Source: Bdellovibrionales bacterium (GTDB lineage Bacteria > Bdellovibrionota > Bdellovibrionia > Bdellovibrionales > UBA1609). From it: DNA of 64,000 bases. Below, piece after piece: positions 3,646-39,734 of this stretch; position 1 is the first letter of the stretch; every line of letters starts with the position of its first letter. The position numbers and the translations under genes were made by a program. The notes under the pieces were generated by a model. That model was not told the origin of the DNA. It did not search any database and saw only the letters and a list, made by a program, of their open reading frames with translations. Location of the stretch: contig OZ244719.1 of the NCBI GenBank assembly GCA_965219095.1, positions 459,071 through 523,070 of the forward strand. The letters run 5' to 3'.

Positions 3646-3647
3646 TT

Positions 3648-20245: not shown

Positions 20246-20330
20246 AAAAAACCAAGCTATTGTTTTCATATATGCACATTTTTAAGAATCTGTTTGAAAG
20301 AAATACACACTTGAATGCTGTTTGAATGTT

Positions 20331-20460
20331 GCAGATCTGTTACAAATTTGCATATTTGTTACAAATGTAACAGATCTGTTACAAAATTGCATATTTGTTA
20401 CAAATGTAACAGATCTGTTACAAATGTATCGGATTCAGCAAATTTGTAACAAATATGCAA
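20331..20460. repeat. GTTACAAAT iteron/palindrome array (module 2 copy, one extra 41-bp unit)
   Basis: Repeated TTGCATATTTGTTACAAATGTAACAGATCTGTTACAAA units. AACAGATCTGTT is a perfect palindrome. The outer 19-bp inverted repeat is TTGCATATTTGTTACAAAT / ATTTGTAACAAATATGCAA. Confidence 0.8.
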
Positions 20461-20564
20461 CTTTTCAAAAAAAAACAAGAAAAACCTTTTTTTTCATTTA
20501 AAACTTTATTGTAGCAAAAGGTTTTATAAAAGAGTCCTTTTTATAAAACCAAAAAGAAAGGAGT

Positions 20565-21301
20565 ATGTATGAAGCAAAAAACAAAAAAAGAGTTCTTATG
20601 AAGATAGAAGCACCTCAAAACCTTGTAAGCTTAAAAGCTCAAATCCAGACCCTTACTTCTCCAGAATTTAGAAACTCCTCTATACATGAAGAAAAAGAAA
20701 TCGATCTCCTGGATGTTATGAAAAAAAATCAAATAGCCTATTTCCAGTTGAATTTAAACAGCTATGGTTTTTTAGGTAAGAAAATCGGTAAAATTCTAGT
20801 TCAAGATCTAAAGGTTATAAGCTCTCAGATTCAATCAGGACAAGTGGATTTTAAGCCTTTACTTTTAGGGGTCTTGATTGATGAATTTGGATCTTTTGCT
20901 ACACCTGATTTTTCAGATTTTTTAAAGCAAGTAAGATCTGCTGGTACAGGAGTTCACTTATTTTGCCAAGGCTTAGCTGATTTAAATGTTGTAAGTCAGA
21001 GTTTTAGCAATCAAGTGTTGGGAAGTGCGGCCACTAAAATCATACTTCGACAAGATGTGAAGAGGACTCTCGAAAAATGGGCTTTTACAGTTGTCACTAG
21101 GGGCACTGTAGGTAGGAGTTTTCAGGTCAGTGAACGCATTCTGGGGAACTTAAAAAAACAGGCTTAGGGAATCTTTTGGAGACCAAAAAAATGAAGATCG
21201 AACATGATGTTTTTAAGAGCTTAAAAGTAGGTCAGGCTGTACTCATTGATAAGATCAAAACCTCACAAGATTTGTTTCAAATTTTTAGCTTAAAGGAGTG
21301 A
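20565..21301 (+). pseudogene. T4CP (TraD/VirD4-like) gene lacking the N-terminal half, frameshifted near the 3' end
   Basis: Aligns to residues of about 290-531 of the 37447-39042 protein (QIAYFQLNLNSYG, LIDEFGSFAT, GVHLFCQGLADL). The Walker A part is absent. The C-terminal KMKIEHDVFKSLKVGQAVLIDK is in another frame (21171-21301). Confidence 0.75.
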
Positions 21302-21366
21302 GCTTTATGAGTAGTTTTAAAAAAATTCTGGAATTTTCTTATAGTGCTAAAAACATGTCTTGCATG

Positions 21367-21529
21367 CACCCCCTTTCCTTTTCCCTTTGTCTTTATACAC
21401 CCAACTCTGCTAAAACCTTCGGTTTTCACCGTGACCACCCTCTCCCGCTCATACTTTTTTTAGTATGGGAGAGGGTGGTCACGGTACCACAGAGTTGGGT
21501 GTATAGATGTGGGAAGAGGAAAGGGGGGT
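21367..21529. repeat. Nested long palindrome (module 2 copy), oriT-like
   Basis: Outer arms CCCCCTTTCCTTTTCCC..TATACACCCAACTCTG / CAGAGTTGGGTGTATA..GGGAAGAGGAAAGGGGGG. Inner arms CCGTGACCACCCTCTCCC(gctc)ATACT / AGTATGGGAGAGGGTGGTCACGG. Confidence 0.8.
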
Positions 21530-21851
21530 GTGAGAGGAGGAAAAAATAGAGAAAATTTTTAGAACTTTTAAATTAAAAATTTTCTCTATCAGGTTAAAAA
21601 ATTTTTGTTTTTTTAAGTTTAACTTGAGTTTTTTTAATGGCCGAGAAAGGAGTAAAAAAAAAGGTCAAAAAACAAATAACAAATCAATCATGAAAGGAGT
21701 AGCATAATGCAAAGCAAGAAAAGTAAAATTTACGACACTTTTTTGAGTGCGTAAATTCATCATATTCAGTGAGGAAAAGTCAGAGTTCTTAGAAGAAACC
21801 AAATGAGGAAGTTTTTTAAGCTTCTTCGCCATATTTTGAAAGGAGAAAAAA

Positions 21852-22109
21852 ATGGATAAAAAAGAATTGAAACCAATTAAAAAAGGTAGTAGTTTAGAGA
21901 ACACTATTCGCCCTCAAAAAAAGGGCCTGTTCTTTGACAATTTAATAACCGTAGAGGAATTAGCCTTAGCGTTTGGGCTGTCTCCTAGAACGATTAAAAA
22001 TTGGGTGAGTTTAAGACAAATCCCCTTTATTCAGTTCAGAAGAAGGACTTACTTTCTTAAAGACAGTATCCATAGATGGCTTCAACAAAAGGAGAAATCA
22101 TGTCAATAA
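21852..22109 (+). CDS. Excisionase-type HTH DNA-binding protein (module 2)
   Basis: MDKKELKPIKK...VEELALAFGLSPRTIKNWVSLRQIPFIQF. It overlaps the integrase start. Confidence 0.7.
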   Translation: MDKKELKPIKKGSSLENTIRPQKKGLFFDNLITVEELALAFGLSPRTIKNWVSLRQIPFIQFRRRTYFLKDSIHRWLQQKEKSCQ

Positions 22110-23275
22110 CCAAACGTAAAAGGAAAAATAAAATAACATATCAAGCAGAAATTTATGTAAGAGGAATTCGTCTGAAAGCAAAAAGCTTTCAAACAAAAAC
22201 AGAAGCCTGTATATGGCACGATAAGGAAAAAAAACGTCTTCAAGAAGGAAGAGTTTCTCTTCAAGAAGAGTTAAGAGAACTTTTCTTTGAAGACTGTGTG
22301 AGAAGGTATCTTAAAGAGTATGTTCCTACTTTAAGAGATTCCAGTCAAAAGAAGATTCAACTTCTTTGCGAGAGGTTTTTTCTACAAAGTCCTTTAGCAA
22401 AAACAAAAATGTCAGATATAGACCATGTCAGTATTGACACTTGGATTGACTGGCTTTTTAGAAGCTTTAAAAACACTGTCAACCGCCATTCTTTTAGAAT
22501 AGAGTTAAGGCGTCTTGGCTCTGTTCTTCACTGGTGGAGAAACTACCTTGATCCAAGCTTTAGCTTTCCTATTGTTCGTGGTCATAGAAATCGGTGTTAT
22601 GTGAAGAAGCGAGAATCTAAGGTGAAAAGGCCAGATTACTTTGCTAAACCTGAAGAGGTGAGGGCTTGGCTTAACGAACTTAAGAAGATTCAAAACCCTG
22701 TTTATTACCGTTTAGCTCAGTTTATGATTTTAACAGGAGCGAGAGTAAGTGAAGCTTGTGGACTTATGTGGAGTGAAATTGATTTTAAGAATCGTTTTGC
22801 AAGAGTTGTTAGAACAGCTGACTGGTCTTCTGAAAAACCTCAAATTCTAGAAACCACAAAGACTAAGACTTCTGTAAGAGTTTTAACTCTTCCTGAAAAG
22901 CTCATAGAGCTTTTGTATGAAATGAAAGAGGAATCTAATAATCCTCTTGTGTTTTACTCTTCAGAAGGAAAGGTCGTTCCTTACACTACCATTCGTTGGG
23001 CCTTTGATAAGTCTTTTAAGACCTGCAATCTTCCTTGGAGAGGAACTCATATTTGCCGTCATACTTATGCCACAATGGCTTTAATGGCGACAAAAAGCCT
23101 CTCAGCTGTCCAAGCAAGTCTTGGGCATAAGGATCAAGCTATGACTCAAAGGTATGCAAAAGTGGTGGCTCTCATTAACTCGGATATGGCAGAAAAAACA
23201 GCTCAGATGTATGAAATGAACTCTTTAGGTTCATCTCCATCACGACAGATCACGACGTCTTTACAGACAAAATGA
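22100..23275 (+). CDS. Tyrosine recombinase/integrase (module 2)
   Basis: Same catalytic motifs as module 1. ATG 22100 lies behind GGAGAAATC; the ORF track allows 22076. Confidence 0.9.
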   Translation: MSITKRKRKNKITYQAEIYVRGIRLKAKSFQTKTEACIWHDKEKKRLQEGRVSLQEELRELFFEDCVRRYLKEYVPTLRDSSQKKIQLLCERFFLQSPLAKTKMSDIDHVSIDTWIDWLFRSFKNTVNRHSFRIELRRLGSVLHWWRNYLDPSFSFPIVRGHRNRCYVKKRESKVKRPDYFAKPEEVRAWLNELKKIQNPVYYRLAQFMILTGARVSEACGLMWSEIDFKNRFARVVRTADWSSEKPQILETTKTKTSVRVLTLPEKLIELLYEMKEESNNPLVFYSSEGKVVPYTTIRWAFDKSFKTCNLPWRGTHICRHTYATMALMATKSLSAVQASLGHKDQAMTQRYAKVVALINSDMAEKTAQMYEMNSLGSSPSRQITTSLQTK

Positions 23276-23481
23276 ACTTTAGGATCAAAAGGATACTGGT
23301 AGTTGAATTTTAAAATTTTTTAAAATTTAAAAAAAGAATTCTAGCAGGAACACTTGGAATGAAAAACTCACGACGGAAATCACGACTTCTCACTAAAATA
23401 GCTAAGATATCACTCATAAAGTAGAGCGTGAAAGAAGTTCTAGCAGTGGAAAGTTTAAGGGATTTTTTGAAAGTAAAAATT

Positions 23482-23970: not shown

Positions 23971-24343
23971 CTAAAAGAGATCTGCTATGTTGTTGGAATC
24001 AGTAAAAAATAAATGAATATAAATAACTTATCCATTACTGTAAGCACCTTGATTTTCCTGAAACTTCTCGATAGTACCCACATTTTAATTATTGATCACC
24101 TACAGATCACACATAAAATTAAGGAAATAATTTATACATACTCATATGAATTACCGCTCTATCCAAGCTTAAATTTCTCTTATAAGTTTTTCTTAGAGGG
24201 AAGATTTTATGGAAGAAAGAATTAATTTAAAAGAGAAAATACAGCTTTGTCGAGAGGAGAGTTTGAACAAAAAGCTTCATCTTTGCTTCCTCCAAACTTG
24301 AAGTCCTTCTTCTTTTGTAAATTCTTTGCTATACCTGTTGGCG

Positions 24344-24970
24344 TTAGGTTTTCTGATCATTTTTTACCTTGCCATTAAGACCGACTTGTTGAAGAAATTT
24401 TTTCCAAATCAAAATAGATCGATCTATAAACTCCTTATGCTCATAAGAGTATTGTTTTTTTTCTGAATAGAAAGTGACTTTAATTACGTGGCAATCACGA
24501 GTATAATCGTATGCACGATAAAACCCTATTTTTTCGCTAAGAGATGGTTTGTTTAATTTTAGATGCTTTAATCCATTTGCAATATCTCGACAAATTAAAA
24601 ACTCTGGGAAGCAAAAAAGCATACAAGAATCTTTATTCAAGTCTTCACTTATAGATAAGTCAACATAATCCTTTAAATGGAAGCAAACTAAGACAAAGGC
24701 ATGAAGATAGTCTATTATGTCTTCAATATTTTTATCATTAGCTATACCTAAATATTCAATTCGCCATTTCCATCTTAATAAAGCCTTCCACTGAATTTTC
24801 CAATTATCTTTATCCTTACCGAAAGCCAAACCAACGTTGTGAAAGCCTGCCTCACCAGGTATCCAAACATCATCTCTTGTATCAATTGATGTGATTGTAT
24901 ATGGTGGTTTATGACCTCCTTTTTCTAATTCTCTTACGATACTCTCAATATCTTTTTTGTTTTTTTCCAT
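24344..24970 (-). CDS. Hypothetical protein
   Basis: 208-aa ORF. It contains RDIANGLKH, only loosely HEPN-like because the R-to-H spacing is 7 rather than the canonical 4-6. That is not enough for a call. Confidence 0.4.
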   Translation of the reverse strand: MEKNKKDIESIVRELEKGGHKPPYTITSIDTRDDVWIPGEAGFHNVGLAFGKDKDNWKIQWKALLRWKWRIEYLGIANDKNIEDIIDYLHAFVLVCFHLKDYVDLSISEDLNKDSCMLFCFPEFLICRDIANGLKHLKLNKPSLSEKIGFYRAYDYTRDCHVIKVTFYSEKKQYSYEHKEFIDRSILIWKKFLQQVGLNGKVKNDQKT

Positions 24971-25122
24971 TTAAAAAATTCTCATTTAAATATCTCAGAA
25001 TTAACTTATTACTGCACTGGAATTTTAATTTTTTCTATTTTTTATTTAATTTTAGCTATTCTTTTTTCTGTATATTGTCAATACAAGGGGCATTATGTTT
25101 TGTCATGAGGATTTTTTTGGTT

Positions 25123-25226
25123 ATCTTTTTTATGAAAGAACGTTAAGTTAGTTTCTTAACAGCCCTTGACTTCTACGAGGAGGATGTTTCTTAGATGCTT
25201 TTGCCCACAGATTCTCGGGAGGAGCC
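25123..25226 (+). mobile_element. Solo chimeric IS end (IS66-type terminal motif plus ISL3 right inverted repeat)
   Basis: Near-identical to 27811-27919 and ends in CCACAGATTCTCGGGAGGAGCC. Confidence 0.6.
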
Positions 25227-25681
25227 AAATAAATAAATATAAATAACTTATGCATTTCTGAAAGCGCCTTGATTTTCCTGAAACTTCTTGATAGTACCTA
25301 AACTTTAATTATTGATTACCTACAGATCACACATAAAATTAAAGATATAATTTAATCCATATTTTCTTTCTTTTTACAACTTTGAGATAATAGTCCTGTT
25401 TTGTAGCCACTCTGTGTCACTATGTTTAGAATCTCTTATGATAATTAGGGTCATTTTAATCTTGTTGTACTTGGGGGGCAAGCAATCAATAAGGTAGCTT
25501 GTATGCAACGCAAAACAACCTTTTGGTAAATAAATGCTTAATTTTAGTATCACCTTAATTTTCATAGCTTGGATGTCATTGAAAATAACGCACATGAGAA
25601 TAGATTTTTATGAGCCAAAATTTTTACTTTTGAAATAAGCATTGAAACTTTTACATAGATCAACCTAAAATAAAAATAATT

Positions 25682-25930
25682 ATGCCTCAATTAAAATATA
25701 GAGATTTACCTTGGAATTTAAAGAGAAGAATAGATGCTTCAGGGCCTATGATGCAACCAAGGAAATCTGAAAATCCCACGGTAAATGGTATTTTAAAAAG
25801 ACTAAAAACCTCTGAAGAACGAGCCTTACAAGCAAAAGCATCTGCCACCGCAAAACAAAAAAGAGATGTTATTGATCTTATTGAAAGCTACTTAGGAGAA
25901 CACAGTACATCAAGGTCTGCTGAACTTTAA
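25682..25930 (+). CDS. Hypothetical protein
   Basis: 82-aa ORF immediately upstream of the methyltransferase-like fragment. Confidence 0.3.
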   Translation: MPQLKYRDLPWNLKRRIDASGPMMQPRKSENPTVNGILKRLKTSEERALQAKASATAKQKRDVIDLIESYLGEHSTSRSAEL

Positions 25931-25933
25931 AAA

Positions 25934-26347
25934 ATGGCGAAAAAGAAGAGAAAAAAGAAACCGGCTGTTTCAAAGCCAATTGAAATTTATAAACATAAGA
26001 GTAAAAGAAAAAACAATCCTCATGTTGGAGGAGTCACCTCTAAAAGAGAAAGTCCAAAAGTTAAAGCTAAAAAATATCAGTATGACTCTCATTTAGATCC
26101 GCTACTACAGTGGGCTGGTAAAGCTGAGCGGACTTCCTTTGAAGTGCCAAGTGTATCCCTTCATGTTCATGAAAAAATTGATCCAAGAAGCATTATTGAA
26201 ACTGTAAGAAATAGAAATTCTATAGATTACGAGCAACTTTCTCTTTTTCAGAGGATGTTCCATTTCTCGGTGGAATTATTAGAGGGCGATTTCATGTTTA
26301 AGCGACCTTTCTTTGTTTTGCAATCATTTTTTCTAAGTTTTCTTTAA
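25934..26347 (+). pseudogene. N-terminal fragment of a DNA methyltransferase-like gene (type III Mod-like), truncated
   Basis: YQYDSHLDPLLQWAGKAERTSFEVPSVSLHVHEKIDPRSIIE resembles, from memory, the N-terminus of large N6/N4 methylases. Similarity stops at about 26250, where a 91-bp repeat and then an ISL3 end begin. Confidence 0.4.
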
Positions 26348-26353
26348 AGTTTT

Positions 26354-27919
26354 GGCTCCTCCAGGGAATCTGTGGGTAAAAAGTAGCTAGAAATCCCCAA
26401 AAAAGCTCATATTAGCCAAAGCAAGAGTAAGATATCCTGTCTTGTATTTTTGAGTTCTTTAAGGCCTTACTGGCCTCTATCGCCGCTGGCGATTGAACTC
26501 AAAAACATTCATTTTATTTGCTGTATTACATTAAAATCTTAAAAAAGAAGCACCTACTTCCCAGATGCCTTAAAATGTTATTCAAAAAAAAAAAAACAAA
26601 GGAGGGAAGAGATGCTTTTGAAGACTATACTAAATGATTGTTTAAAATGGAAGTCTTTTGTGTATGGAGACATTTATTTTTCAAAAGATAGAAAGTCAAT
26701 TAATGTTCCTATTAAGGCTCGTAAAAATGGCCAAGTTCTTTGTAATGTTTGTAAGAAGCCCTAGTGTATGACACCAGTAAATCATCACGGGACTTTGAAT
26801 CCCTTCCTATTTTAAGTTACAGGGTGTTCTTTGTTTATACTGTAAGAAGAGTCAATTGTCCTTGCTGTGGGGTAAAAGTTGAACATTTACCTTGGGCTGA
26901 TGGTAAGAAGAGTTTAACGATCTTTTACATGAAGTACTTAGCTGACTGGTGTCGTCACCTATCTTGGAAAGAGGTTTCTTGTAAGTTTCAGGTCAGTTGG
27001 AATCAGGTCTATGCTTCAGTGGAGTGGGTTGTAGAGTATGGTTTAAAACAGAGGGTTTTAGAGGGGATATATGCTATAGGAGTCGACGAGATACAATGGA
27101 AAAAGAACCATAAGTATCTCACCTTAGTCTATGAAATAAGCAAAGAAAGTGTTCGTTTGCTATGGATAGGAGAAAAAAGAACAGAGGAGAGTTTCAACAA
27201 GTTTTTTGATTTGCTAGGAGAGAAGTCAAAAGATATACAGTTTGTGTGTTCTGATATGTGGAAGCCCTATTTAAAAGTTATAAAGGAAAGGGCAAGTCAA
27301 GCTTTGAATATATTAGATCGCTTTCATATTGTAGCAAAACTCAATAAAGCTTTAGATGAAGTGAGAGCCTCAGAACATAGAAAAATGAAAGAAGATGGCT
27401 GTCAACCACTTTTAACAAAAGCTAGATGGCCTTTGTTAAAAAATGCAGAAAATTTAAAATCTTATGAGAAAGTAAAATTAAGGCATTTAATACAGTACAA
27501 CTTAAAAAGTATCCGCTGTTATCTTTTAAAAGAAGACTTCCGACAGTTATGGACCTATGTTTCACCAACTTGGGCTGGGAAATTTATAGACAGTTGGACG
27601 AAACGAGTCATGCTTTCAAAAATTGAACCCTTAAAGAAAGAAGCAAAAACCATACGAAGACATAAAACTCTTATCCTTAATTACTTCAAAGCTAAAAAAA
27701 CCTTCTCCTCAGGGATTGTAGAGGGTTTAAATGTAATAGTCGCAACTTGATCTGACAGTTACCCTTTCTGGGTTGATAAAAAACTGTCTGTCAGTTTGCG
27801 TTCTGTTCAATCATCTTTTTTATGAAAGAAAGAACGTAAGTTGGTTTCTTAACAGCCCTTGACTCCTACGAGGAGGATGTTTCTTAGATGCTTTTAACCA
27901 CAGATTCTCGGGAGGAGCC
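26354..27919 (+). mobile_element. Degenerate ISL3-family element
   Basis: Left IR GGCTCCTCCAGGGAATCTGTGGG and right IR CCACAGATTCTCGGGAGGAGCC. The transposase frame is broken by TAG at about 26762 and diverges from intact copies after GIVEGLN (about 27732). Confidence 0.8.
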
Positions 27920-27926
27920 GATATTT

Positions 27927-29258
27927 TTATGAAGTTGAAGTTTCAGCCAAAGCATCAATCCAATTATTAATATATCTAGCTTTGCTTTGAATTACATGAG
28001 ATTCAGCCAAACCTTTGATTTCTTTAAGTTGATTCACAAGTTTGTCAATGTCTTTTTTACGAACTTCCTCTCTTTCCTTTAGCATACATAACAAAAAGTG
28101 AAAGCGTGCCTTTTTTGCTGCAGCAGGAGTTTGTACCTCTCTATTTGATTTCTTACTTTTACTAGAACGAGTCTCTCCAAAGTTTTTAAAGTTATTAAGA
28201 TCATCTTTGATTACACCCTTACATATTGCACAATCACAAATTTTTTGAAAAAAATCATGGTGAGTATTGATATGAAGATTTTCAAATAATAGCTCTATCT
28301 CAGGAATTCCAAATTTTCCATGCAATGGTGGAAAGTAATAATTTATAACTGGAGTCCCTCCCCCTAAAACAGGCATAATATTTTTTTTAGAACCATAGCC
28401 TACACCGTGAGAAACACTTGTCATGCCAAATTTAGATAGAAGGTAAGAGAAATACCCTCCATGCCTATTAAATACTTCAAGCCCGTTTTCCTTATATTTT
28501 TCAACTAGTCTGCGAAATGAAGAAAGATAGTTAGCACTTCTTTCGCTTTCATCAAAGTCATTTATCCATAGATAAACCCCTTTGAAACCATTTCCCAGCT
28601 TTAAAATGGCATTAATAAAATTAGAGTCTAATAAAAGATCATAATCGAAACAGAGACTTAGATATAAATCATTAGAGTATGAAAGAGAATCTTGACGGAT
28701 TTTTTGATATATATTAATCCAGAGATCTTTTCGCTTTTTATCTATAAAAAAATAAGGCGTGAAAATTATTTTTGGCATTGAGAGGTCATTTGCAAAAGAA
28801 GCTGTTTCTTCGTCTTCTCGTAAGATATTTTTAATTCGATTATTTTGATACTCAATTACAGATTTACAAATATCTTTTCGTTTTATATCGCCATCTAAGT
28901 CCTTCAAAGTAATGGCCTTACTATTTTCAACAGCATCACTAAAGCTATTACCTAATTTTAAAGCTAATTTTTTATATGAAGCTTTAATTTCAAATCCTTT
29001 TTTAGTTTTAGATTTTAACCATTGAAGATCAGAAATGAGTTGCCCATCATGCGAATAGTATTCGCCAAAAGAGTAGGTCATAGGATCAATAAGATAATCT
29101 CTATTATTTTCTTTGCAATGCTTTATTATTAAACTTGCAACGGCATTAGGAGTCATCTCTATTAAGTTTCCGCTAAAGGTAACCCCATCGAAAAATCGAA
29201 GAATCTTATCAAAATAATCTTTTTCTGAGTGACTACCATATCTTAAAAAAATATTCAT
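27927..29258 (-). CDS. Uncharacterised 443-aa protein with a TGT/DpdA-like CxCxxC...H motif
   Basis: C-terminal CDCAICKG...ARFHFLL resembles the zinc site and following R-x-(Y/H)-L-x-H-L helix of tRNA-guanine transglycosylase-type enzymes. Last gene of four overlapping genes. Confidence 0.35.
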   Translation of the reverse strand: MNIFLRYGSHSEKDYFDKILRFFDGVTFSGNLIEMTPNAVASLIIKHCKENNRDYLIDPMTYSFGEYYSHDGQLISDLQWLKSKTKKGFEIKASYKKLALKLGNSFSDAVENSKAITLKDLDGDIKRKDICKSVIEYQNNRIKNILREDEETASFANDLSMPKIIFTPYFFIDKKRKDLWINIYQKIRQDSLSYSNDLYLSLCFDYDLLLDSNFINAILKLGNGFKGVYLWINDFDESERSANYLSSFRRLVEKYKENGLEVFNRHGGYFSYLLSKFGMTSVSHGVGYGSKKNIMPVLGGGTPVINYYFPPLHGKFGIPEIELLFENLHINTHHDFFQKICDCAICKGVIKDDLNNFKNFGETRSSKSKKSNREVQTPAAAKKARFHFLLCMLKEREEVRKKDIDKLVNQLKEIKGLAESHVIQSKARYINNWIDALAETSTS

Positions 29259-29671
29259 TTTTTTCTTATTCCTTGAGCTTTCTTAATAGATTCAGTTTTA
29301 TATCTCATATTTATCACTTTAGATTTTGAAGGTTTCAATGTTATTCTGCAGTGTCCAGATGAATCAACAGCAATGACACCCACTCCAAATGGTTGAAGTT
29401 CTTGCAAAATTTTCTTGTTAATTTTCGTTTTAGGCATCGCTATGTAAACATAGTCAGAACAAAGCTGGTATATAAGTGCTTGTTGTAGAGCTTTTTTCCA
29501 TTTTATTAATTTTAATTCAACAGACACTGCTTCCATATCCTTAGAGTAAGTAAATAAATCTATATTATACCTATAGAAACTCAACTCTTTACAAGGAGGA
29601 TTAACATATTTGTTTTTTAAAAAACGAAAAACAGGTGTTAAAAGCTGAGCTTCCTTACTAAAATCCAACAT
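29255..29671 (-). CDS. Small PD-(D/E)XK (RecB-like) nuclease-fold protein
   Basis: NIDLFTY...AVSVELKLIKWKKALQQALIYQL carries D...E-x-K...QxxxY. It overlaps both neighbouring genes. Confidence 0.45.
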   Translation of the reverse strand: MLDFSKEAQLLTPVFRFLKNKYVNPPCKELSFYRYNIDLFTYSKDMEAVSVELKLIKWKKALQQALIYQLCSDYVYIAMPKTKINKKILQELQPFGVGVIAVDSSGHCRITLKPSKSKVINMRYKTESIKKAQGIRKK

Positions 29672-30245
29672 TTTTTTCCTCCATATCTCTTAATTTATTC
29701 TCTAAATAGAGTATGTAAACCATTGAACATATTCCGATCATAAAAAATACAGCACTAAAAATAAGAGGATAACATAATATATATCTATCCAGATTATTTA
29801 CATTTTTCTCGTAGAGTGCCATTAAACACAGAATAATGAATTCTAGACCAGCAAGAATTAAGGATAGATATTTTAGAAGGCGTGAATAAATCTTCCACTT
29901 CCAGTATGCAGTTTTTATTTCACTATACTGTTTAAAGAAAGTATTTTTTTTCTCTAAATAATCATCTAGCCAATTCTTAAAGGCTTCACTCTCAGCAGGA
30001 TTTTCCATGCCTTCTATGTACTTAAGACCCTCATCCTTTTCAACATATACATTAGGAATAGGTTTTAATAGCTTGGTAAGTTCTTCTGCTATTTCACCTG
30101 TTATTGAGTTTTTTATATTTAATATCGAACTATAAATGTATTCAAAAAAATCTTTTTTTCTTTCACTAAATTTAAAAAAATAGATAAGATAGGCTGTTAA
30201 AAGAAAACCATGAATCCATGTAATAGTTCCATAACTCAAAATCAA
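29658..30245 (-). CDS. Membrane protein with three predicted TM helices
   Basis: Hydrophobic stretches ITWIHGFLLTAYLIYFF, YLSLILAGLEFIILCLMAL and PLIFSAVFFMIGICSMVYILYL. Confidence 0.5.
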   Translation of the reverse strand: MILSYGTITWIHGFLLTAYLIYFFKFSERKKDFFEYIYSSILNIKNSITGEIAEELTKLLKPIPNVYVEKDEGLKYIEGMENPAESEAFKNWLDDYLEKKNTFFKQYSEIKTAYWKWKIYSRLLKYLSLILAGLEFIILCLMALYEKNVNNLDRYILCYPLIFSAVFFMIGICSMVYILYLENKLRDMEEKNVGF

Positions 30246-30799
30246 AACCCTCTTTTTAAAACTTGCTTTTTAACCTCAGATTCAGTTGTCATACCAGGGT
30301 ATTTCTTATAAACATAGTAAAGCAAATCACGAAGAGAATATTTACTAAAATTAGATTTAATTTTTCTAATCTTATTAAGAGTCGGTTGATGCTCTTCAGA
30401 GTTAAGCATGCTTTGAATTTTACTTCTGCCTTTTTCCGTAAGTTTAAATCTTTTTTCAACATAACTATCAGAGTAAGAACTATCATCTTCCTTTCCAATT
30501 AAATCTTCAAATTTTATTTCAACTGATTCAAACGAAGTACTTTCACCCACAACTTCACTCTTGATATAACCAAGGTTTTCTAAAAACTCTAAGGAATCAT
30601 AAATCTTTGATGAAAAAGGCCCTGCTTTATAGGGTTCAAACTTAAAGCCATCATCTAGGGCTTGAACTTCTTCTTCAGTTTCTAATAAATAGAGAAATTT
30701 TTGAAGACGAGTTGCCCCACCTAGTTTACCTTGAAGACTTGAACCCTCAGCATCTAATCCAATCATGCACAAAATTAAAGATTTTGTGTTCATACTCAT
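30242..30799 (-). CDS. Panacea/DUF4065 (SocA/GepA-like) domain protein
   Basis: ATRLQKFLYLL...FEPYKAGPFSSKIYDSLEFLENLGYI resembles the LQKLLY...W.YGPV...Y pattern. Start taken at MSMNTK; the ORF track allows 30853. Confidence 0.45.
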   Translation of the reverse strand: MSMNTKSLILCMIGLDAEGSSLQGKLGGATRLQKFLYLLETEEEVQALDDGFKFEPYKAGPFSSKIYDSLEFLENLGYIKSEVVGESTSFESVEIKFEDLIGKEDDSSYSDSYVEKRFKLTEKGRSKIQSMLNSEEHQPTLNKIRKIKSNFSKYSLRDLLYYVYKKYPGMTTESEVKKQVLKRGF

Positions 30800-31941
30800 A
30801 AGTTCAGACCCCTCATAACTAAACTGTATCCCATAATGCAGAATAGGCAACAAATTAAACCGGTGACTGATGATAGAAGCTATGCAAGTAGCCCAGCCAA
30901 ATCTAACAACAGTTAGTACACTGTAAAGCTATAAAATCAATATACTTTGAACTCCAAATCTAATGGCCGAACCTACAAATGTATAAATTATGTGTTGTTT
31001 TGCGTTAGGACTTCCTATGATAAAGCTAAAGGTTGCTATCACAAGACCAATCACCGAAATAAGGGGGCAAAATCACATTGTGAGCCTTGATTTGATATCG
31101 ATAAGGGAAGATTCAAGGCTTGCAAGCCGGCTTTTCAAAGAAGCCATAAAATAACTCCTGCTAGAAACACCGTAAAAAAAAGTCGGTTGTCTGCCCTATC
31201 CAAGCTTAAATTTCTCTTATAATTTTTCTTAGAGGGGGATTTTAGAAGAAATCCTAAAGGAGGCTCTGGGGACTTTAAGAGAAAATTGACTATCCGCAGA
31301 AACAGGAGAAGTCCACTTTTGCTACTGAGCAACGATTTGCGACGCTTATTGTTGATCTTGAGGTATGGATGGAATCAAAAGTTCTTTGGATTAGTGAGTT
31401 AAAGGCTTTATTAGAAAAATTCGGAAATCCTAGGCTGTAGCTAATTTTATTGGTGCTAGTGAAGCGTTTGTCCGGAAAAACGTCCGAATTTCGGACATTA
31501 AAAAGCAAAAAAAATAATTTCAAAAAAATATTAAAAAAATCCCTAATTATTGCTATGCTTTCCTAAAAAGAAGGAGACAAATTGCCAACACTTGATTTTA
31601 GAGGAAAGTCTATGCAAAAAATTATGAAGAAAAAAATTGTGGGAAAGCCATTGTTTTCGCATCAACTTGTTTTGAGAAGGCAAAAGAACTTTCTCAAGAA
31701 AGCATTACTTTATTGTCAACTTCCATTCGCTATCCATAGAATAGTAGGATCTTAATGCATTTAAAAGAATTTCAAGAATCTATTTTAGAAAAGCTAGATA
31801 ATTACTTAGATGCTCTTAAATATGAATATAGGGAAGAGTTAGACATAAAAGAGGTAAAAAAAGGCAAAAGCTACCAACTAGAGGAATACTTACAAAAAAT
31901 ATGGAGCAAGTTTTGAAAAGAGGGTTTTGATTTTGGAACGT

Positions 31942-32997
31942 ATGATAAAGCAATATTTTTTCTTATTCCTTATCCTAGTTTTTATTGTTTTAATTATTTT
32001 GCTTCCGTTTTGGTATGAGGATGTAATAAAAAGCTATTTTAAAATAGATGGCAACAATATCTCTAAGTGGGAAGTCATCAAGAGCTTAGGTTATGCTATT
32101 GGCGTAGTGGCTCTTCTTGCACAAATATCAATTTCTAGTCGCAGAACAGATGCCTCAGAAGAGTCAAATTTAAATCAACGTTACCATAACGCTATCGATC
32201 ACTTATCGAGAGAAAATACAACAGCTAGGATTGGTGCTATTTATAACTTATATAATATATCAAAATCTTCAAGAGCTTATTGCAGAGTAATTTTTGATAT
32301 ATTTTGCACACACCTAAAAGGAAAAGGCAATAACTTTGAAATCAGAAAGGAAGAAAAGCAATTGATTGTTGATAAGTTATTTCGAGCCAGAAAAGAAGAT
32401 AGAGTTTTGAGTAATCCTCAAAAAGTAGAACTTCAAAATATAGACTTTACAGATATAAATTTTGAAAAAGCATTTTTGAGAGAAGCAAAATTTATAGGAA
32501 CTAATTTAGAAAGTTGTTCTTTTAAAGAAGCAGACCTAACTGAGTCATGCTTGCCAGCAGAATTAAAAGGGGTTAAAAGCATGGAGAAAGCAATATTGAA
32601 TAAAACGGAGTTCAAATCTGGTAGTATTCTTAGAGGCCTTATCATGAATAACGGAAAGTGGAAAGATGCAAAGATTTTATATAGCGACTTGTCAAATGCA
32701 AAGTTAGAAAATGTGGATTTAACGAGAACAAAATTAACAGGAACAAAGTTAGAAAATGCAAATTTAAAAGGGGCAAATTTAAAAGGGGCAAATTTAAAAA
32801 AGGCTACCTTGGAAAATGTTGATTTAACAAAAGCAGATCTTTCGTATGCCAAGAACTTAACTTTTAATCAATTGGTTGAGGTGAGTAGCTTGCACGGTAT
32901 TATCGGATTAGATGAGAAAATTGAAAGGAAGTTAAAGACAGAAAAACCAGAGCTTTTTCAAAAAAAGCAAGAAAATATAAAGGAGGACGCAAAATGA
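31942..32997 (+). CDS. Membrane-anchored pentapeptide-repeat protein
   Basis: N-terminal TM segments (FFLFLILVFIVLIILLPFW, LGYAIGVVALLAQI). C-terminal repeats AKLENVDLTRTKLTGTKLENANLKGANLKGANLKKATLENVDLTKADLSYA. ATGA overlap with the next gene. Confidence 0.75.
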   Translation: MIKQYFFLFLILVFIVLIILLPFWYEDVIKSYFKIDGNNISKWEVIKSLGYAIGVVALLAQISISSRRTDASEESNLNQRYHNAIDHLSRENTTARIGAIYNLYNISKSSRAYCRVIFDIFCTHLKGKGNNFEIRKEEKQLIVDKLFRARKEDRVLSNPQKVELQNIDFTDINFEKAFLREAKFIGTNLESCSFKEADLTESCLPAELKGVKSMEKAILNKTEFKSGSILRGLIMNNGKWKDAKILYSDLSNAKLENVDLTRTKLTGTKLENANLKGANLKGANLKKATLENVDLTKADLSYAKNLTFNQLVEVSSLHGIIGLDEKIERKLKTEKPELFQKKQENIKEDAK

Positions 32998-33740
32998 GTA
33001 AAAATAAAATAAAAATCAATGGGAGAGAACAAGACATTCAGTGTGGTTTAATTAACGGGGAGAGTTTATATTCGCAACTTAATATGTCATGTGATGGAGA
33101 ACGGTTATTTTTAGATGTTCAAAGTGAAGTTGATATTCCAATTAACAAAGATGATTATATTGTTATATTAGGCAAAGAAAGCTTTGTAACTGGAAAATCT
33201 AAAATAGACGATAATCCTGCTTTAAAAAAGCAGATATCTATTAAAGTAGATGACAATCCTATCGAATTATCTAAACCCAAGATAACAGGAAAAGAAATTA
33301 AAGATAGTTGTAAAGATTCGCTACCCAATAGCAATCTTTACATAGACTTATTAAATATTCCTGATCAGCTAATCAAAGATGATTTTATGTTAATTATTAA
33401 CCCTGATCCTAAAAGCCCTGAGCATTGCTTTATAATAGTGCCTGTGTCAGATGATAATATTATTGATACTGAAGAATGTGCCAAACATAACAAAAAGCCT
33501 CCTAAAAAACAAGATAAGTATAAAATAAAAATAGATGGTCAAAAATATATTGCTCCTGCTTGGCAATTATCAGGTAAAGAAATATTAAAATTAGCAAATA
33601 AAGAATGGCAACAGTTTAGCTTGCAGCAAAAATTTAAAGGAGGAGAAAGAAAAGTTATAGGACCTGAGTCTAAAGTAGATTTTTCTACACCAGGTGTTGA
33701 ACGCTTTGAAACTGTTCCAAAAGAAGCACAACAAGGATAA
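32994..33740 (+). CDS. Multi-ubiquitin (three beta-grasp repeats) protein ending in Gly
   Basis: Repeats KIKINGREQDIQCGLINGESL, ISIKVDDNPIELSKPKITGKEI and KIKIDGQKYIAPAWQLSGKEIL. The C-terminus ...PKEAQQG lies directly before the stop codon. Confidence 0.65.
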   Translation: MSKNKIKINGREQDIQCGLINGESLYSQLNMSCDGERLFLDVQSEVDIPINKDDYIVILGKESFVTGKSKIDDNPALKKQISIKVDDNPIELSKPKITGKEIKDSCKDSLPNSNLYIDLLNIPDQLIKDDFMLIINPDPKSPEHCFIIVPVSDDNIIDTEECAKHNKKPPKKQDKYKIKIDGQKYIAPAWQLSGKEILKLANKEWQQFSLQQKFKGGERKVIGPESKVDFSTPGVERFETVPKEAQQG

Positions 33741-33742
33741 AT

Positions 33743-34123
33743 ATGGATTTTGAATTGCCAGAAGATGACGTAGGTTTTCTCAACAATTCGTTTGAAGGTA
33801 GATGGAGTACTATAATTAACTCTACAGAGCAGGGTATAATTATTAGGAACTATTCTTTACCAGAGGGTTATGATCCATCTGAGGTAAAAGTAATGATTTT
33901 AATTCCACAAAATTATCCTATGGCTGCCCTTGATATGTTTTATTTATGCCCTGGGACATTTAAAAAAAATGGTCATAACATAGAACAATTAAGTGATGAA
34001 TCTCATTTTGATAAGCAGTGGCAACGTTGGTCAAGACACTACGAATGGCAGGCTGGGACCAATAATATTGCAATACATTTGAAATTTGTTGAAAATGCTT
34101 TAATAGACGAGTTAAAAAAATGA
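33743..34123 (+). CDS. Prokaryotic E2-like (Prok-E2 family E-like) protein
   Basis: 126 aa with IPQNYPMAALDMFYLCPG, which holds the candidate catalytic Cys. Its position between the Ubl and E1 genes fits. Confidence 0.55.
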   Translation: MDFELPEDDVGFLNNSFEGRWSTIINSTEQGIIIRNYSLPEGYDPSEVKVMILIPQNYPMAALDMFYLCPGTFKKNGHNIEQLSDESHFDKQWQRWSRHYEWQAGTNNIAIHLKFVENALIDELKK

Positions 34124-35496
34124 AATACTCTCTCTCTTTAAACAACGAACAGCATCAGAAGCTAAAAAATCATCTGCTTATAGATCATTTGGAATCTGTT
34201 GCATTGATCCTTTGCCATCAATCTAAGAGTACAAGTCAGATAAAGCTAATTGCCTCTGAAATTATTTTAATTTCACATAGCTTATGCAAAAGAACAAAGG
34301 CCAATATTACTTGGCCAGTTGAAAAATATTTTACTCCATTGCAAATTGAGAGAATGGACAAAGAAAAATTATCTTTAATGACGATACATAGTCACCCCAA
34401 CGGATATAACAATTTTTCAAATTTAGATAACAATAACGATAATATCTTATTTAGATCAGTAAATAATTGGTTTAATGACGAGAGACCAAATGGTTCGCTT
34501 GTAATGTTGCCAAATGATCATCTCTTTGGAAGAGTTGTTAATAAGGCTGGGGATTTTACTCCATTATCACACATTAGTATTGCAGGAAGTAATATAAAGA
34601 TTTTAAAGCATAAAAAGGAAAATAGCAATGTACCGAAGTTTAGTAAACGAGTCGCTCAAACTTTTGGAAAACACACACTTTCTACTCTAAAGCAATTGAA
34701 TGTTGGTGTCGTTGGATGCTCTGGAACAGGAAGTATTATTATTGAGTTGTTAGCTCGTAACTGCATTGGAGAATTAGTTATTGTCGATCCTGATATAGTT
34801 GAAGAAAAAAACTTAAATAGGATATTAAATACTGCATCGAGTGATGCCAATAGGACAAACCCTAAAGTTAAAGTTCTAAAAAGAGCAATTCAAAAGTTAG
34901 ATATGGGAACGGAGGTATCTGCTTACCAATCTACTACATCTGATAGAAAAGTCATATCGGCATTAAAAAACTGTGATATTTTATTTGGTTGTGTTGATTC
35001 AGCTATTGGTAGATACCATCTTGATTGTGTGTCATCTGCTTATATAATTCCTTACTTTGATATTGGAGTTCGAATTGATGCAGATAAAAAGGGAAATATC
35101 TCTCAGGCAATTACAGTTGCCCATTATATTGAACCAGGACAATCGAATCTTTTGTCAAGGGGGGCCTATACTAGTGAACAAGTGAGGGTGGAGAGTTTAA
35201 AGATACACAACCCAACTCATTATGAACAACAAAAAAAAGAAGGCTATATTTCTGGAATAGATGAAGATCAACCTGCAGTAATATCAGTTAATATGCAAGC
35301 TGCGTGTATGTCATTTAATGACTTTATAGCACGTATTCATAATTATCGGCTAGATAGTAATTGTGATTTTGCTATTCAACAAATGAGTTTAACCCATGGA
35401 TACTATAGACATCAAAAAAACAAGCAAGGACTTCATCCACTCTTTGCTAAAAATTTTAGCAAAGCCGATCAATCTGATCTATTGAAATTGATATGA
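34120..35496 (+). CDS. JAB/JAMM deubiquitinase-like domain fused to ThiF/E1-like adenylation domain
   Basis: JAMM motif HSHPNGYNNFSNLD. Rossmann motif VGVVGCSGTGSIIIELLARNCIGELVIVDPDIVEEKNLNR. Confidence 0.75.
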   Translation: MKYSLSLNNEQHQKLKNHLLIDHLESVALILCHQSKSTSQIKLIASEIILISHSLCKRTKANITWPVEKYFTPLQIERMDKEKLSLMTIHSHPNGYNNFSNLDNNNDNILFRSVNNWFNDERPNGSLVMLPNDHLFGRVVNKAGDFTPLSHISIAGSNIKILKHKKENSNVPKFSKRVAQTFGKHTLSTLKQLNVGVVGCSGTGSIIIELLARNCIGELVIVDPDIVEEKNLNRILNTASSDANRTNPKVKVLKRAIQKLDMGTEVSAYQSTTSDRKVISALKNCDILFGCVDSAIGRYHLDCVSSAYIIPYFDIGVRIDADKKGNISQAITVAHYIEPGQSNLLSRGAYTSEQVRVESLKIHNPTHYEQQKKEGYISGIDEDQPAVISVNMQAACMSFNDFIARIHNYRLDSNCDFAIQQMSLTHGYYRHQKNKQGLHPLFAKNFSKADQSDLLKLI

Positions 35497-37446: not shown

Positions 37447-39042
37447 ATGATTTTCTTTTTAGGGGGAGTGATTGCACATAAAGAGATTAAAAAAGCTCCT
37501 TATGCTTCTAAAAGGCTTGCGAAAAACTATAAATTTATAATTTGTATTTTTATTGGCCTTGTCATTTTAGAGACTCTTTTTTATCTACTTGTTTTAGACC
37601 TCTTGTTTTTCTGGTTAGCACAGCTTTTTGTATTTTGGATCTTTCAGGCTTTTTTACTTTTTATAACTTGTAATTTTTGGCTTAAGGATGAGAACATAAA
37701 ATCCAAAAAACGCATTACAGTGGATCATTTGGAGGGAGAAGAAGTTGATTTCAAAACTTTTGAGAAGGCTCTTGAGTCTAAAGACTCAGCTCCTATAGGA
37801 GCCAATTTTGTCAAAAAAGAGCTTGTAAGTTTACCTGTCAGTTCTAGAACAGAGCATTTACTTGTTACAGGAGCGACAGGCACAGGAAAAACAACCTTGA
37901 TGATGAATTTACTGAGGCACAGTTTTTTGCATAAACACCCTCTTGTGATCCTTGATCCTAAGGGGGAAATAAAGGACATAGAGATGATAAAATTCCTTTT
38001 TTGTGAGTTAGGAAGAAAAGAGGAAGACTTTAAGCTTTTTTCTCTTGCACAGCCTGAAAAGAGCTTGTCCTACGATCCTTTGAAGTATGGAACAAGTGAA
38101 CAAGTGAGGTCGAAACTGATGCTTGGCCTTAGTTTTACTCATGATTATTATGCTTCACAAGCCAGTCAGTATCTTTCTATCTTGCTTTCTTGTTTTGAAG
38201 CTCTAAAAAAGAAAATGAATCTTAAAGAATTAAAACAAGCCCTCAACAACTCTCACAAAGAATTTATGGAGAAAAAAGAGCTGGAAGGGATGGAAGATGA
38301 TGTAGCTTCTTTATCTCAAATTAAAAAAGAAGACCTTGCAGGATTAAAAGCTCAGGTTGAGATTTTAAACTCTAGAGAGTTTTCTCATCTTCTTTCTTCT
38401 TCAAAGTGTCAAATTGATTTAGTTGAGATTTTGGAAAAAGGTCAGGTGGCTTATTTTCAACTGAACACAAACGGATATGGTGATTTTGCAAGACGTTTAG
38501 GCAAAATGATTGTGCAAGACTTGAAAGTTATAAGCAGTCAAATTCATGCAGGACAAATAGCACCTAAGTTTAACTTTGCAGGGATATTTATTGACGAATT
38601 TGGCTCTTTTGCAACAAGAGATTTTAGCGACCTTCTTAAAATGATCAGAAGCTCTAACATAGGGGTTCATCTTTTTTGTCAAGGCTTGGCTGATTTAAAA
38701 GCTGTATCTTCTGAGTTTTCGGATCAGATTTTAGGTAACACTGCTTATAAGCTGATCTTCCGTCAAGATGTCCCTCAAGACTGTGAAACATGGTCTTCTG
38801 TTTGTGGAACTATAGAAGATAAAGCTATGACCTTTCAAGTGTCATCACAAGAGATGTTAAGCGAGTTTGAAAAAACAGGCTTAGGTTCACTTTTTAACAC
38901 CAAAAAGATGAAAGTGGATTTTGATGTTTTTAAGTCTTTAAAAAGAGGTCAAGCTCTTCTTATTGATAAACTTCAAAACAAGCAAATTTTACTTCAAGTT
39001 TACAATGCTAAAGAAAAAAAGAAGAAAGGCTTGGAGAAATGA
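37447..39042 (+). CDS. Type IV coupling protein-like ATPase (TraD/VirD4/TrwB family), the only intact copy
   Basis: N-terminal TM helices, Walker A VTGATGTGKT and Walker B-like FIDEFGSFAT. 531 aa. Confidence 0.75.
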   Translation: MIFFLGGVIAHKEIKKAPYASKRLAKNYKFIICIFIGLVILETLFYLLVLDLLFFWLAQLFVFWIFQAFLLFITCNFWLKDENIKSKKRITVDHLEGEEVDFKTFEKALESKDSAPIGANFVKKELVSLPVSSRTEHLLVTGATGTGKTTLMMNLLRHSFLHKHPLVILDPKGEIKDIEMIKFLFCELGRKEEDFKLFSLAQPEKSLSYDPLKYGTSEQVRSKLMLGLSFTHDYYASQASQYLSILLSCFEALKKKMNLKELKQALNNSHKEFMEKKELEGMEDDVASLSQIKKEDLAGLKAQVEILNSREFSHLLSSSKCQIDLVEILEKGQVAYFQLNTNGYGDFARRLGKMIVQDLKVISSQIHAGQIAPKFNFAGIFIDEFGSFATRDFSDLLKMIRSSNIGVHLFCQGLADLKAVSSEFSDQILGNTAYKLIFRQDVPQDCETWSSVCGTIEDKAMTFQVSSQEMLSEFEKTGLGSLFNTKKMKVDFDVFKSLKRGQALLIDKLQNKQILLQVYNAKEKKKKGLEK

Positions 39043-39047
39043 GAAGA

Positions 39048-39282
39048 CACCCAACCCAACCACTCTTTTATAACCTATCACTACTGTGTACCTGTGGTGA
39101 CGAAAGTGAGTTAGGGTGGTCAAATCTTAAACCCTTTCAACAAGTCGTAAGAATGGGCGTAATAAGGCCCTTTGATAAGGTCTTGTTTTCATTGGGTTTA
39201 GGATTTGACCACCCTAACTCACTTTCTAATCTCTCTGGTAGATGTGGTGTGTGATGTGTGGTGTGAGTGGTTGGGTTGGGTA
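39048..39282. repeat. Nested long palindrome (module 3 version), oriT-like
   Basis: Outer arms CACCCAACCCAACCACTC (39048-39065) / GAGTGGTTGGGTTGGGT (39265-39281). Perfect 25-bp inner arms GAAAGTGAGTTAGGGTGGTCAAATC (39102-39126) / GATTTGACCACCCTAACTCACTTTC (39202-39226). Confidence 0.8.
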
Positions 39283-39441
39283 GTAGGTTGGTGGAAAAGG
39301 AAAGGAAAGAAAATTTTTTTAAAGCTAGTCTTAAAAAAATTTTCTGTTTGTTAAATCTGCGGACGAACTTTTATAAGCTCTCCGCACTATCCTCTCTTGA
39401 AGCTCAAGAAAGGATGTAAATCAATAAGGAAAGGAGTAGAA

Positions 39442-39669
39442 ATGAAACTAAAAACTACAATTTATGACGCACTCTCAGTCAGAGCTTATAAAGACTCTCA
39501 GGGAAACGAAAAAGTGGACTACCAAAGAATAGGTGTAGCCTTTGGTTTAAAGAACAAAAACGGTTTTTCTTTGAAGCTCACAAGCTTGCCTGTCTCAGGG
39601 GAGCTTGTGGTTATAGAAAGAATACCAAAAAAAGAGCAGAAAAATGATACAGAAGAAATGCCCTTTTAA
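39442..39669 (+). CDS. Small hypothetical protein (module 3 only)
   Basis: ATG behind AAGGAAAGGAG. Encodes MKLKTTIYDALSVRAYKDSQGNEKVDYQRIGVAFGLKNKNGFSLKL... Confidence 0.4.
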   Translation: MKLKTTIYDALSVRAYKDSQGNEKVDYQRIGVAFGLKNKNGFSLKLTSLPVSGELVVIERIPKKEQKNDTEEMPF

Positions 39670-39734
39670 AGGCTTAGAATACCAAATGAGGGAGCTTTAA
39701 GCTCCCTCGTTATATTTTGAAAGGAGAAATAAAA

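Follow-up and report, generated by a model that had tools for sequence, protein, structure and literature searches.

A self-contained four-gene cassette with a Panacea-like protein, a predicted small nuclease, a zinc-motif TIM barrel, and an exchangeable effector slot: a candidate anti-phage system

Background

Panacea antitoxins neutralise toxins that are unrelated to one another, including membrane-depolarising toxins with C-terminal transmembrane (TM) helices, and the authors who described the domain proposed that its role is mainly sensory (PMC8832971, PMC10440598). A structural study of DpdA characterised the superfamily that it shares with tRNA-guanine transglycosylase (TGT) by a TIM barrel, a beta8/alpha8 insertion pinned by a zinc site, and three invariant active-site Asp residues (PMC10164549). 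The zinc site of these enzymes has the form CxCx2Cx22H (with a spacing of 22 to 26), its Cys residues coming from the beta8/alpha8 insertion and its His from the terminal helix, and the three Asp residues serve as general acid/base, in base recognition, and as nucleophile (PMC10164549). Here we describe a cassette of four genes with likenesses to both groups, located on the minus strand at positions 27927-30853 of a 64,000-nucleotide stretch of contig OZ244719.1 from a Bdellovibrionales bacterium (the whole of this stretch is called the window below). Its four open reading frames (ORFs), which overlap at each of three junctions, encode a Panacea-like protein (gene 1), a membrane protein (gene 2), a small predicted nuclease of the PD-(D/E)xK type (gene 3), and a protein modelled as a TIM barrel with a zinc-type motif (gene 4).

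A first, sequence-only reading of this DNA could place the combination in no named defence or toxin-antitoxin (TA) system, and that view has held up. Scans of the four proteins against PADLOC-DB 2.0.0 (2023), Pfam, NCBIfam, and PHROGs gave no system-level match and nothing at curated thresholds, and we found no description of this gene combination in the literature. In organisation, the cassette resembles abortive-infection systems such as Thoeris, CBASS, and Pycsar, which likewise join a constant sensing or regulatory core to alternative TM, nuclease, or SIR2 effectors, and which are also patchily distributed and mobile. Unlike those systems, the cassette has no recognisable cyclase, TIR, or other enzyme that generates a signal, and its core components (the Panacea-like protein, the PD-(D/E)xK nuclease, and the zinc-motif TIM barrel) match no named system. 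The logic of a constant core, swappable effectors, and a Panacea switch is a known one; the composition of the core and the gene 4 family are new.

Results and discussion

To describe the cassette beyond the window, we used 40 loci from contigs of one genome per species, plus loci recovered by exact look-ups, and searched their ORFs with one hidden Markov model (HMM) per protein. Essentially every locus with enough flanking sequence (about 45 independent loci) keeps genes 1 to 4 in one order and orientation, each junction being close or overlapping; the four-gene operon proposed from the window alone is thus supported as a co-inherited unit. The bacterial hosts come from over ten phyla, with representatives in Bdellovibrionota, Acidobacteriota, Planctomycetota, Gemmatimonadota, Gamma- and Betaproteobacteria, Latescibacterota, Sumerlaeota, Armatimonadota, and Ignavibacteriales, and two archaea, Wolframiiraptor and Methanoperedens, are hosts as well; cultured carriers are Bacteriovorax sp. 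BAL6_X, whose gene 4 protein is WP_021268105.1, and Gimesia spp. Distant relatives of gene 4, at about 26% identity, retain the same four parts. The flanks, by comparison, are variable: a census of the 138 nearest-neighbour ORFs yielded 179 Pfam families, none with more than three occurrences, and no conserved fifth gene. The gene 4 proteins of a gammaproteobacterium and a member of Latescibacterota are 74% identical, whereas those of two gammaproteobacteria share only 52% identity, which points to horizontal transfer of the module. Given the fixed gene order, the variable flanks, and the close relatives in different phyla, the cassette is a self-contained, horizontally moving unit. At one locus (L001) it lies beside an integrase, inside an element with type IV secretion system genes, and at another (L002) it adjoins five integrase genes. 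Complete cassettes were found on only two of 2.9 million viral contigs, a count that we take as neutral.

One copy has been damaged. In an Acidobacteriaceae contig (L003, 3583-6419), two DDE_Tnp_1 insertion sequence elements of identical length lie within and around gene 2, and the copy in the sister assembly L002 is intact; the insertions show recent inactivation of the module in one lineage. Two apparent fusions, P0125 (in which the N-terminus of gene 2 runs into a truncated gene 4) and P0225, have the look of chimeras produced by deletion or in assembly, and were set aside.

The position filled by gene 2 in the window can hold other proteins. In a metagenome-assembled genome of Wolframiiraptor (L042), a PIN_3 protein (1304-1717; PF13470, E = 9.7e-13, above threshold) replaces the membrane protein to give the order g1-PIN_3-g3-g4. 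The start of its gene overlaps the stop codon of gene 1, an arrangement like that of an archaeal PanA-PIN toxin-antitoxin pair inside the cassette. Two other loci, L073 and L074, have the order g1-g3-g4-SIR2: there is no TM gene, gene 1 directly overlaps gene 3, and a 350-aa SIR2-family protein begins 4 nt after gene 4 (L073 2896-3948, L074 2005-2568). Homologues of this last protein at 86% and 55% identity carry PF02146/PF13289, and several are named SIR2 family by JGI. A further two loci, L071 and L072, lack gene 3 and have a 357-aa NucS_C (PD-(D/E)xK) protein 3' of gene 4 (6415-7488 and 4017-5090, respectively), for an order of g1-TM-g4-NucS_C. Proteins of the TM, PIN, and SIR2 kinds typically serve as interchangeable effectors in abortive-infection systems. 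The swapping of this slot therefore defines an invariant core made up of the Panacea-like protein, the PD-(D/E)xK nuclease, and the zinc-motif TIM barrel, with an exchangeable fourth member. An ORF that precedes gene 1 in L073 (3-701) resembles, by eye only, a Type I restriction-modification specificity subunit (HsdS).

In the window, the sequence-only reading had given gene 2 one N-terminal and two C-terminal TM helices, a shape typical of membrane-disrupting effectors. The C-terminal pair is strong (residues ~122-144 and 152-180, with a helical middle of ~95 aa), but the N-terminal segment is weak in the window protein (maximum Kyte-Doolittle value 1.34, residues 6-24), although it exceeds the threshold of 1.6 in many homologues. 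The family evolves fast, with no invariant residue in its alignment and a conserved topology of two to three TM segments, and gene 2 has no family match in Pfam, NCBIfam, PADLOC, or PHROGs. As the slot holds a PIN or SIR2 protein in variants, its occupation by gene 2 fits the effector role suggested by the shape of the protein.

For gene 3, a RecB/Cas4-type nuclease signature had been predicted, and the alignment agrees: E7, D38, E52, K54, W58, and Q64 are invariant in 37 sequences, the window protein reads D38, E52-L-K54, and Q64xxxY68, and the full E...D...ExK...Q constellation of a PD-(D/E)xK nuclease is kept, the presumed catalytic residues included. In constellation and size, gene 3 is like the small PD-(D/E)xK nucleases (Mrr_cat, Hjc, YraN, TnsA-N, NucS_C/Shedu-type, sce7726, and LmuC), and in L071 a NucS_C protein substitutes for it. 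It differs from them in staying below curated thresholds and forming a family of its own, of at least 455 proteins, all unnamed except for one Gimesia homologue (UniRef: TnsA endonuclease N-terminal domain-containing). Comparison with curated PD-(D/E)xK families gave no match at threshold, and a PDB profile search gave no significant match. The sub-threshold matches are scattered over Mrr_cat, Hjc, PDDEXK_9, YhcG_C, MTES_1575, MmcB, and YraN, and other weak matches are to sce7726 in nine members (best E = 0.0029), LmuC (0.0038), and phrog_2776 (1.6e-6). An identification of genes 3 and 4 as the NCBIfam sce7726/sce7725 pair was rejected, as gene 3 matches sce7726 only marginally and gene 4 never matches sce7725. 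Both proteins are strongly basic, with net charges of +15 (gene 3) and +9 (gene 4).

The reading that we favour, with a probability of roughly 60%, is that the four genes are a self-contained mobile conflict system that provides anti-phage defence of the abortive-infection type. The data show the co-conservation, the catalytic motifs, the gene 4 fold, the swapping of slots, and the mobility; we infer who senses what, who inhibits whom, and the outcome for phage defence as follows. The gene 3 and gene 4 products, both basic, would bind nucleic acid and process it, and in this way detect or attack incoming DNA or RNA. The gene 1 protein would keep the effector inactive, as Panacea antitoxins do, and may also sense the trigger. 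Infection would release the effector and the cell would be arrested, by membrane depolarisation in the case of the window cassette, and by RNA cleavage or NAD+ depletion in the PIN and SIR2 variants.

Several points weigh against this reading. The immediate neighbours at most other loci are housekeeping genes rather than defence genes, so the usual argument from defence-island enrichment is weak. The PIN, SIR2, and NucS_C variants occur at one or two loci each, and genes 2 and 4 are not represented by any PADLOC model. No member of the gene 1 family reaches the gathering score of PF13274 (SocA_Panacea), the window protein scoring 15 bits against a cutoff of 25.7. Finally, a role in TA addiction would leave much the same genomic signature.

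For gene 1, the sequence-only reading had proposed an antitoxin-type Panacea domain on the basis of its motif, RLQKFLYLLE...YKAGPFSSKIY in the window protein. The family pattern is GGxTRLQKLLFLLE...F.xYKAGPYS..LYDDLEFLENLG, followed by an acidic insertion and then a conserved C-terminal half; mean column identity in the family alignment is 40%, and G28, T30, R31, K34, G60, P61, and S63 are among the invariant residues. Sub-threshold matches to PF13274 are found in 27 of the 33 family members (best E = 1.3e-5) and span model positions 1-107 of 113, a resemblance that is family-wide but weak. There are partial matches to PADLOC PDC-M19A (1.6e-10), to phrog_14939 (4.7e-13), to the DarG and Type I specificity-subunit models of PADLOC, and to a DarG chain in the PDB, in which a profile search with gene 1 gave no significant match. 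The proposed likeness thus survives as a sequence pattern shared across the family, and formal membership does not: weakly, the evidence suggests a divergent Panacea-like protein, not a demonstrated Panacea member.

If the likeness extends to function, the cassette could be an elaborated TA or addiction module that stabilises mobile elements, in which a PanA-like gene 1 neutralises a PanT-like gene 2, and genes 3 and 4 are accessories with no dedicated anti-phage role. Among type II TA systems of the PanA-PanT kind (Panacea/DUF4065, SocA-like), there are validated pairs with membrane toxins (PMC8832971), and the cassette shares with them the Panacea pattern, the overlap of gene 1 with the gene of a C-terminal-TM protein like the validated membrane-depolarising PanT toxins, and a partner of variable toxin type, such as the PIN protein whose gene overlaps gene 1 in L042. 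The cassette is also often found beside integrases or within integrative elements. Such a module would, on the other hand, have four genes instead of two, with the nuclease and the TIM-barrel protein as obligate parts. Conservation is strictest for genes 3 and 4, which persist when the toxin slot changes or moves, whereas the accessory third genes reported for PanAT occur in few genomes; gene 1, sub-threshold in Pfam score, itself persists in L073 without an adjacent toxin gene, and many copies of the cassette sit among housekeeping genes with no mobile element visible. We therefore regard an addiction module as an unlikely explanation, if the first to be reckoned with after abortive infection. 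The PanAT surveys left out operons of more than three genes (PMC8832971), which may explain why the cassette was missed.

Gene 4 is the founder of an unannotated family. None of its close homologues (at least 185) has a Pfam domain, and the few with a name in their source record are called hypothetical protein. A profile search of 1.84 billion representatives found 954 clusters (50% identity) at E<=1e-3, of which 404 are at E<=1e-30. An AlphaFold2 model, made from a 40-sequence alignment, is a TIM barrel (pLDDT 92.3, pTM 0.90) with a helical insertion of ~100 residues after strand 3 and a C-terminal subdomain bearing a Cys3-His motif. Searching the PDB by Foldseek with the full model, a check that the sequence-only reading had suggested for a TIM-barrel fold, retrieved TIM barrels only. 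The best E-values belong to GH10 xylanases (~3e-3, TMq ~0.3), and the highest TMq values and longest alignments to archaeosine TGT (1iq8_A, 0.43) and QTRT1 (6h62_A, 0.42), which rank 38 and 46 by E-value (~0.04), behind the xylanases. The second match in BFVD is a viral queuine tRNA-ribosyltransferase (E = 5e-3). A PDB profile search gave no significant match, with a GH53 galactanase marginal. Clan GH-A enzymes need a Glu at the ends of strands 4 and 7; in our reading of the strand order of the model, the ends of these strands (PYFY and NMHGG, respectively) lack a catalytic Glu, and GH53 and GH10 were rejected as functional leads.

Across 53 diverse members of the family, D58, P59, K92, Y169, W231, P303, C341, C346, H387, E395, and W433 are invariant, and C343, E237, H284, Y288, and G289 reach a conservation of at least 90%. 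The CxCxxC motif is present in 242 of the 244 full-length members; in the window protein the motif reads C341-D-C343-A-I-C346...R-F-H387-F-L-L. In the model, the Cys residues come after strand 8 (279-285) and H387 is predicted in a long helix (378-401). The sequence-only reading had compared this motif to the zinc site of TGT/DpdA-type base-exchange enzymes, and the comparison is good in part. The modelled fold is a TIM barrel, as in that superfamily, and the near-universal Cys3-His motif agrees with the zinc site of the superfamily in both motif and secondary-structure placement, but the spacing from Cys to His is 40 residues and not 22 to 26. The helical insertion after strand 3 is a further difference. 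For comparison by hhalign, we built an alignment of bacterial TGT and one of phage DpdA (A8, nine proteins) from public records. The alignment to bacterial TGT places the Cys3-His motif on C302, C304, C307, and H333 of E. coli Tgt; it is weak (E = 0.0036, probability 9%), has a 16-residue gap at a beta-hairpin of gene 4, and includes the zinc motif as the sole segment aligned. There was no match to phage DpdA, whose nine-protein alignment has no invariant Cys column and no CxCxxC that could be seen by eye.

Against three catalytic Asp residues in TGT and DpdA, the gene 4 family has a single Asp that is invariant. This residue, D58, closes strand 3, which is the position of the general acid/base Asp in those enzymes. 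After strand 8, the nucleophile position, no acidic residue is conserved, and the window protein has S290. Apart from D58, the conserved acidic residues are E237 and E395, the latter in the helix after H387. Pfam, NCBIfam, and PDB profile scans of the family gave no significant match; a single member of the 53 matches TIGR00449, at E = 0.063. When residues 312-443 were modelled alone (pLDDT 78), a PDB search returned nothing better than E = 4.8, and since the isolated C-terminal subdomain has no TGT neighbour, this test failed to support a TGT relationship. Taken together, descent of this zinc-motif TIM barrel from the TGT superfamily is possible, and we would give it slightly less than an even chance. 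Without the catalytic set of a TGT, base exchange is not the default expectation, and as it stands a base-exchange role for gene 4 is not supported.

A second alternative, a Dpd-like modification-restriction or modification-dependent system, would make gene 4 a true base-exchange or excision enzyme acting on DNA or tRNA, and gene 3 a nuclease that cuts according to modification status. It draws on the barrel and on the zinc ligands in register with those of TGT, on the TGTs having the top global TM-scores, on the viral tRNA-ribosyltransferase in BFVD and the lone TIGR00449 match, and on D58 occupying the site of the general acid/base Asp (PMC10164549). The fold also has precedents in defence, in DpdA and in Cap10 of type IV CBASS; Cap10 is without the zinc site, whereas gene 4 keeps the Cys3-His motif. 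What makes this alternative improbable is, first, gene 4 itself, with one invariant Asp in place of three, a variable residue after strand 8, profile similarity that is confined to the zinc motif, and a C-terminal subdomain that finds no TGT when searched alone. Secondly, the neighbour census shows no conserved partner from the preQ0 pathway and no conserved ATPase (DpdB-like) or methyltransferase, and an effector that can be swapped between TM, PIN, and SIR2 proteins does not suit plain restriction-modification logic.

A more speculative reading, which we think unlikely, is that gene 4 is a zinc-pinned TIM barrel derived from a TGT, has lost the transglycosylase chemistry, and works as a base-flipping sensor or glycosylase for foreign nucleic acid. 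With the PD-(D/E)xK nuclease it would then relay the signal, by way of a switch of the Panacea type, to killing effectors that can be interchanged. The nucleic acid sensed may be, for example, phage DNA with 7-deazaguanine or other hypermodified bases, or tRNA. If true, this would amount to an immune architecture not seen before and a functionally new branch of the TGT superfamily.

The membrane protein could instead serve as an anchor. SNIPE is a precedent for membrane-localised nuclease defence (PMC13190303), and in a system of that kind the sole task of gene 2 would be to hold the gene 3 and gene 4 products, as a complex, at the inner membrane, so that phage DNA would be cut directly during injection, with no abortive infection. 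Co-translation of the membrane protein with the nuclease is consistent with this arrangement, but the gene 2 alignment offers no conserved residues that might form a specific surface for docking. Because a soluble PIN or SIR2 protein takes the place of the membrane protein in the variants, an effector is favoured over an anchor, and we hold the latter to be improbable.

Least probable is a housekeeping operon for DNA repair or nucleic-acid metabolism with no role in conflict: the nuclease and TIM-barrel proteins are both basic, some repair enzymes, Endo IV for one, are TIM barrels, and many copies have housekeeping flanks, but the patchy distribution, the similarity across phyla, the variable genomic context, the company of a Panacea-like protein and of TM, PIN, or SIR2 effectors, and the mobile region around the window cassette are all difficult to explain in this way.

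The features of the window cassette and its surroundings are collected in Table 1. The four minus-strand ORFs and their three overlaps are as first described (TTGA, 4 nt, between genes 1 and 2; 14 nt between genes 2 and 3; ATGA, 4 nt, between genes 3 and 4), and only the start of gene 1 has been corrected. The mechanical ORF (30242-30853) has 203 aa from a TTG, but the true start is most likely the ATG at 30799, judging from a Shine-Dalgarno sequence, GAGGGG, 9 nt 5' of it and from homologues that begin at the equivalent residue. A candidate promoter 5' of gene 1 is weak evidence, because promoter-like matches are fewer in this region than in shuffled sequence. Gene 1 and the divergently oriented pentapeptide-repeat gene are separated by roughly 1 kb (30854-31926) with no convincing ORF, and no Rfam family matched anywhere in 24000-33000. 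GC content is a little lower in the cassette (30.4%) than in the window (33.9%).

Table 1. Coordinates of the cassette and of neighbouring features in the window
Feature	Coordinates	Strand	Description
Gene 1	30242..30799	-	Panacea/SocA-like protein, 185 aa from the most likely ATG start; acidic insertion mid-protein
Shine-Dalgarno sequence of gene 1	30809-30814	-	GAGGGG
Candidate sigma-70-like promoter	30900..30927	-	5' of gene 1; TTTACA-16-TAGATT with TG; consensus match only
Gene 2	29658..30245	-	195-aa membrane protein, TTG start; exchangeable effector slot
Gene 3	29255..29671	-	138-aa basic predicted PD-(D/E)xK nuclease, net +15
Gene 3 catalytic core codons	29510..29560	-	D38 at 29558-29560; E52-L-K54 at 29510-29518; counted from the ORF start at 29671
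Gene 4	27927..29258	-	443-aa TIM-barrel protein, founder of an unannotated family
Gene 4 putative zinc site	28098..28238	-	C341-x-C343-x-x-C346 at 28221-28238; H387 at 28098-28100
Ubiquitin-like conjugation operon	31927-35496	+	TM pentapeptide-repeat protein; Multi_ubiq, 248 aa; Prok-E2_E, 126 aa; JAB-ThiF/E1 fusion, 458 aa
Integrase and TraG/TraD-like modules	20247-23465, 44005-47185		Integrase of 399 aa
Further integrase/TraG copy, direct	38867-41106		Diverged
Further integrase/TraG copy, inverted	9873-11938		
ISL3-family transposases	26588-27750, 48950-49700, 56284-57540		One copy inverted
Probable defence locus	370-7088	-	Two very large genes
Direct repeats	16183-16514, 42099-42442		Short-period; start-to-start spacings of 21, 54, and 75 nt
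ORFs containing the direct repeats	16119-16994, 42035-42847		Paralogous

The sequence-only reading had described the context as a defence-rich mobile one next to a ubiquitin-like operon. This is true of the window, with its integrase/TraG modules, ISL3 transposases, ubiquitin-like operon, and Type IIG restriction-modification gene, but most other copies of the cassette are placed differently. Two copies of a module with an integrase and a TraG/TraD-like fragment are ~96-100% identical over the repeat segments found, a third, direct copy is diverged (73-92%), and a fourth is inverted. These repeats look like tandem or nested integrative elements, with the cassette and the ubiquitin-like operon as cargo between two of them. 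The three ISL3-family transposase copies are 92-98% identical, and 176 nt separate the end of one copy from the gene 4 stop codon. Immediately upstream of the cassette, and divergent from it, is the bacterial ubiquitin-like conjugation operon. Near the start of the window, the 1091-aa product of one of two very large genes matches the PADLOC HKD+Snf2, DrmD, and BrxH helicase models, and one window ORF, presumably the adjacent 1146-aa gene, has a Type IIG restriction-methyltransferase match (1.2e-93); this is probably another defence locus. Apart from these, direct repeats inside two paralogous ORFs suggest a repeat-containing protein that was duplicated along with the mobile modules.

Conclusions

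If the favoured reading is true, the cassette is a widespread, unnamed four-component system, carried mainly by environmental phyla (Planctomycetota, Acidobacteriota, Bdellovibrionota, and archaea) that screens in model organisms have barely sampled. It would give a first function to three unannotated families, namely those of gene 4 (~950 clusters), gene 3 (at least 455 proteins), and gene 2, and it would take the Panacea antitoxin/sensor domain beyond two-gene TA pairs and into a system of several enzymes. For separating sensor from effector, the variants with TM, PIN, and SIR2 proteins offer a natural handle, and gene 4 could reveal a new use of a TGT-like, zinc-pinned TIM barrel, in nucleic-acid surveillance.

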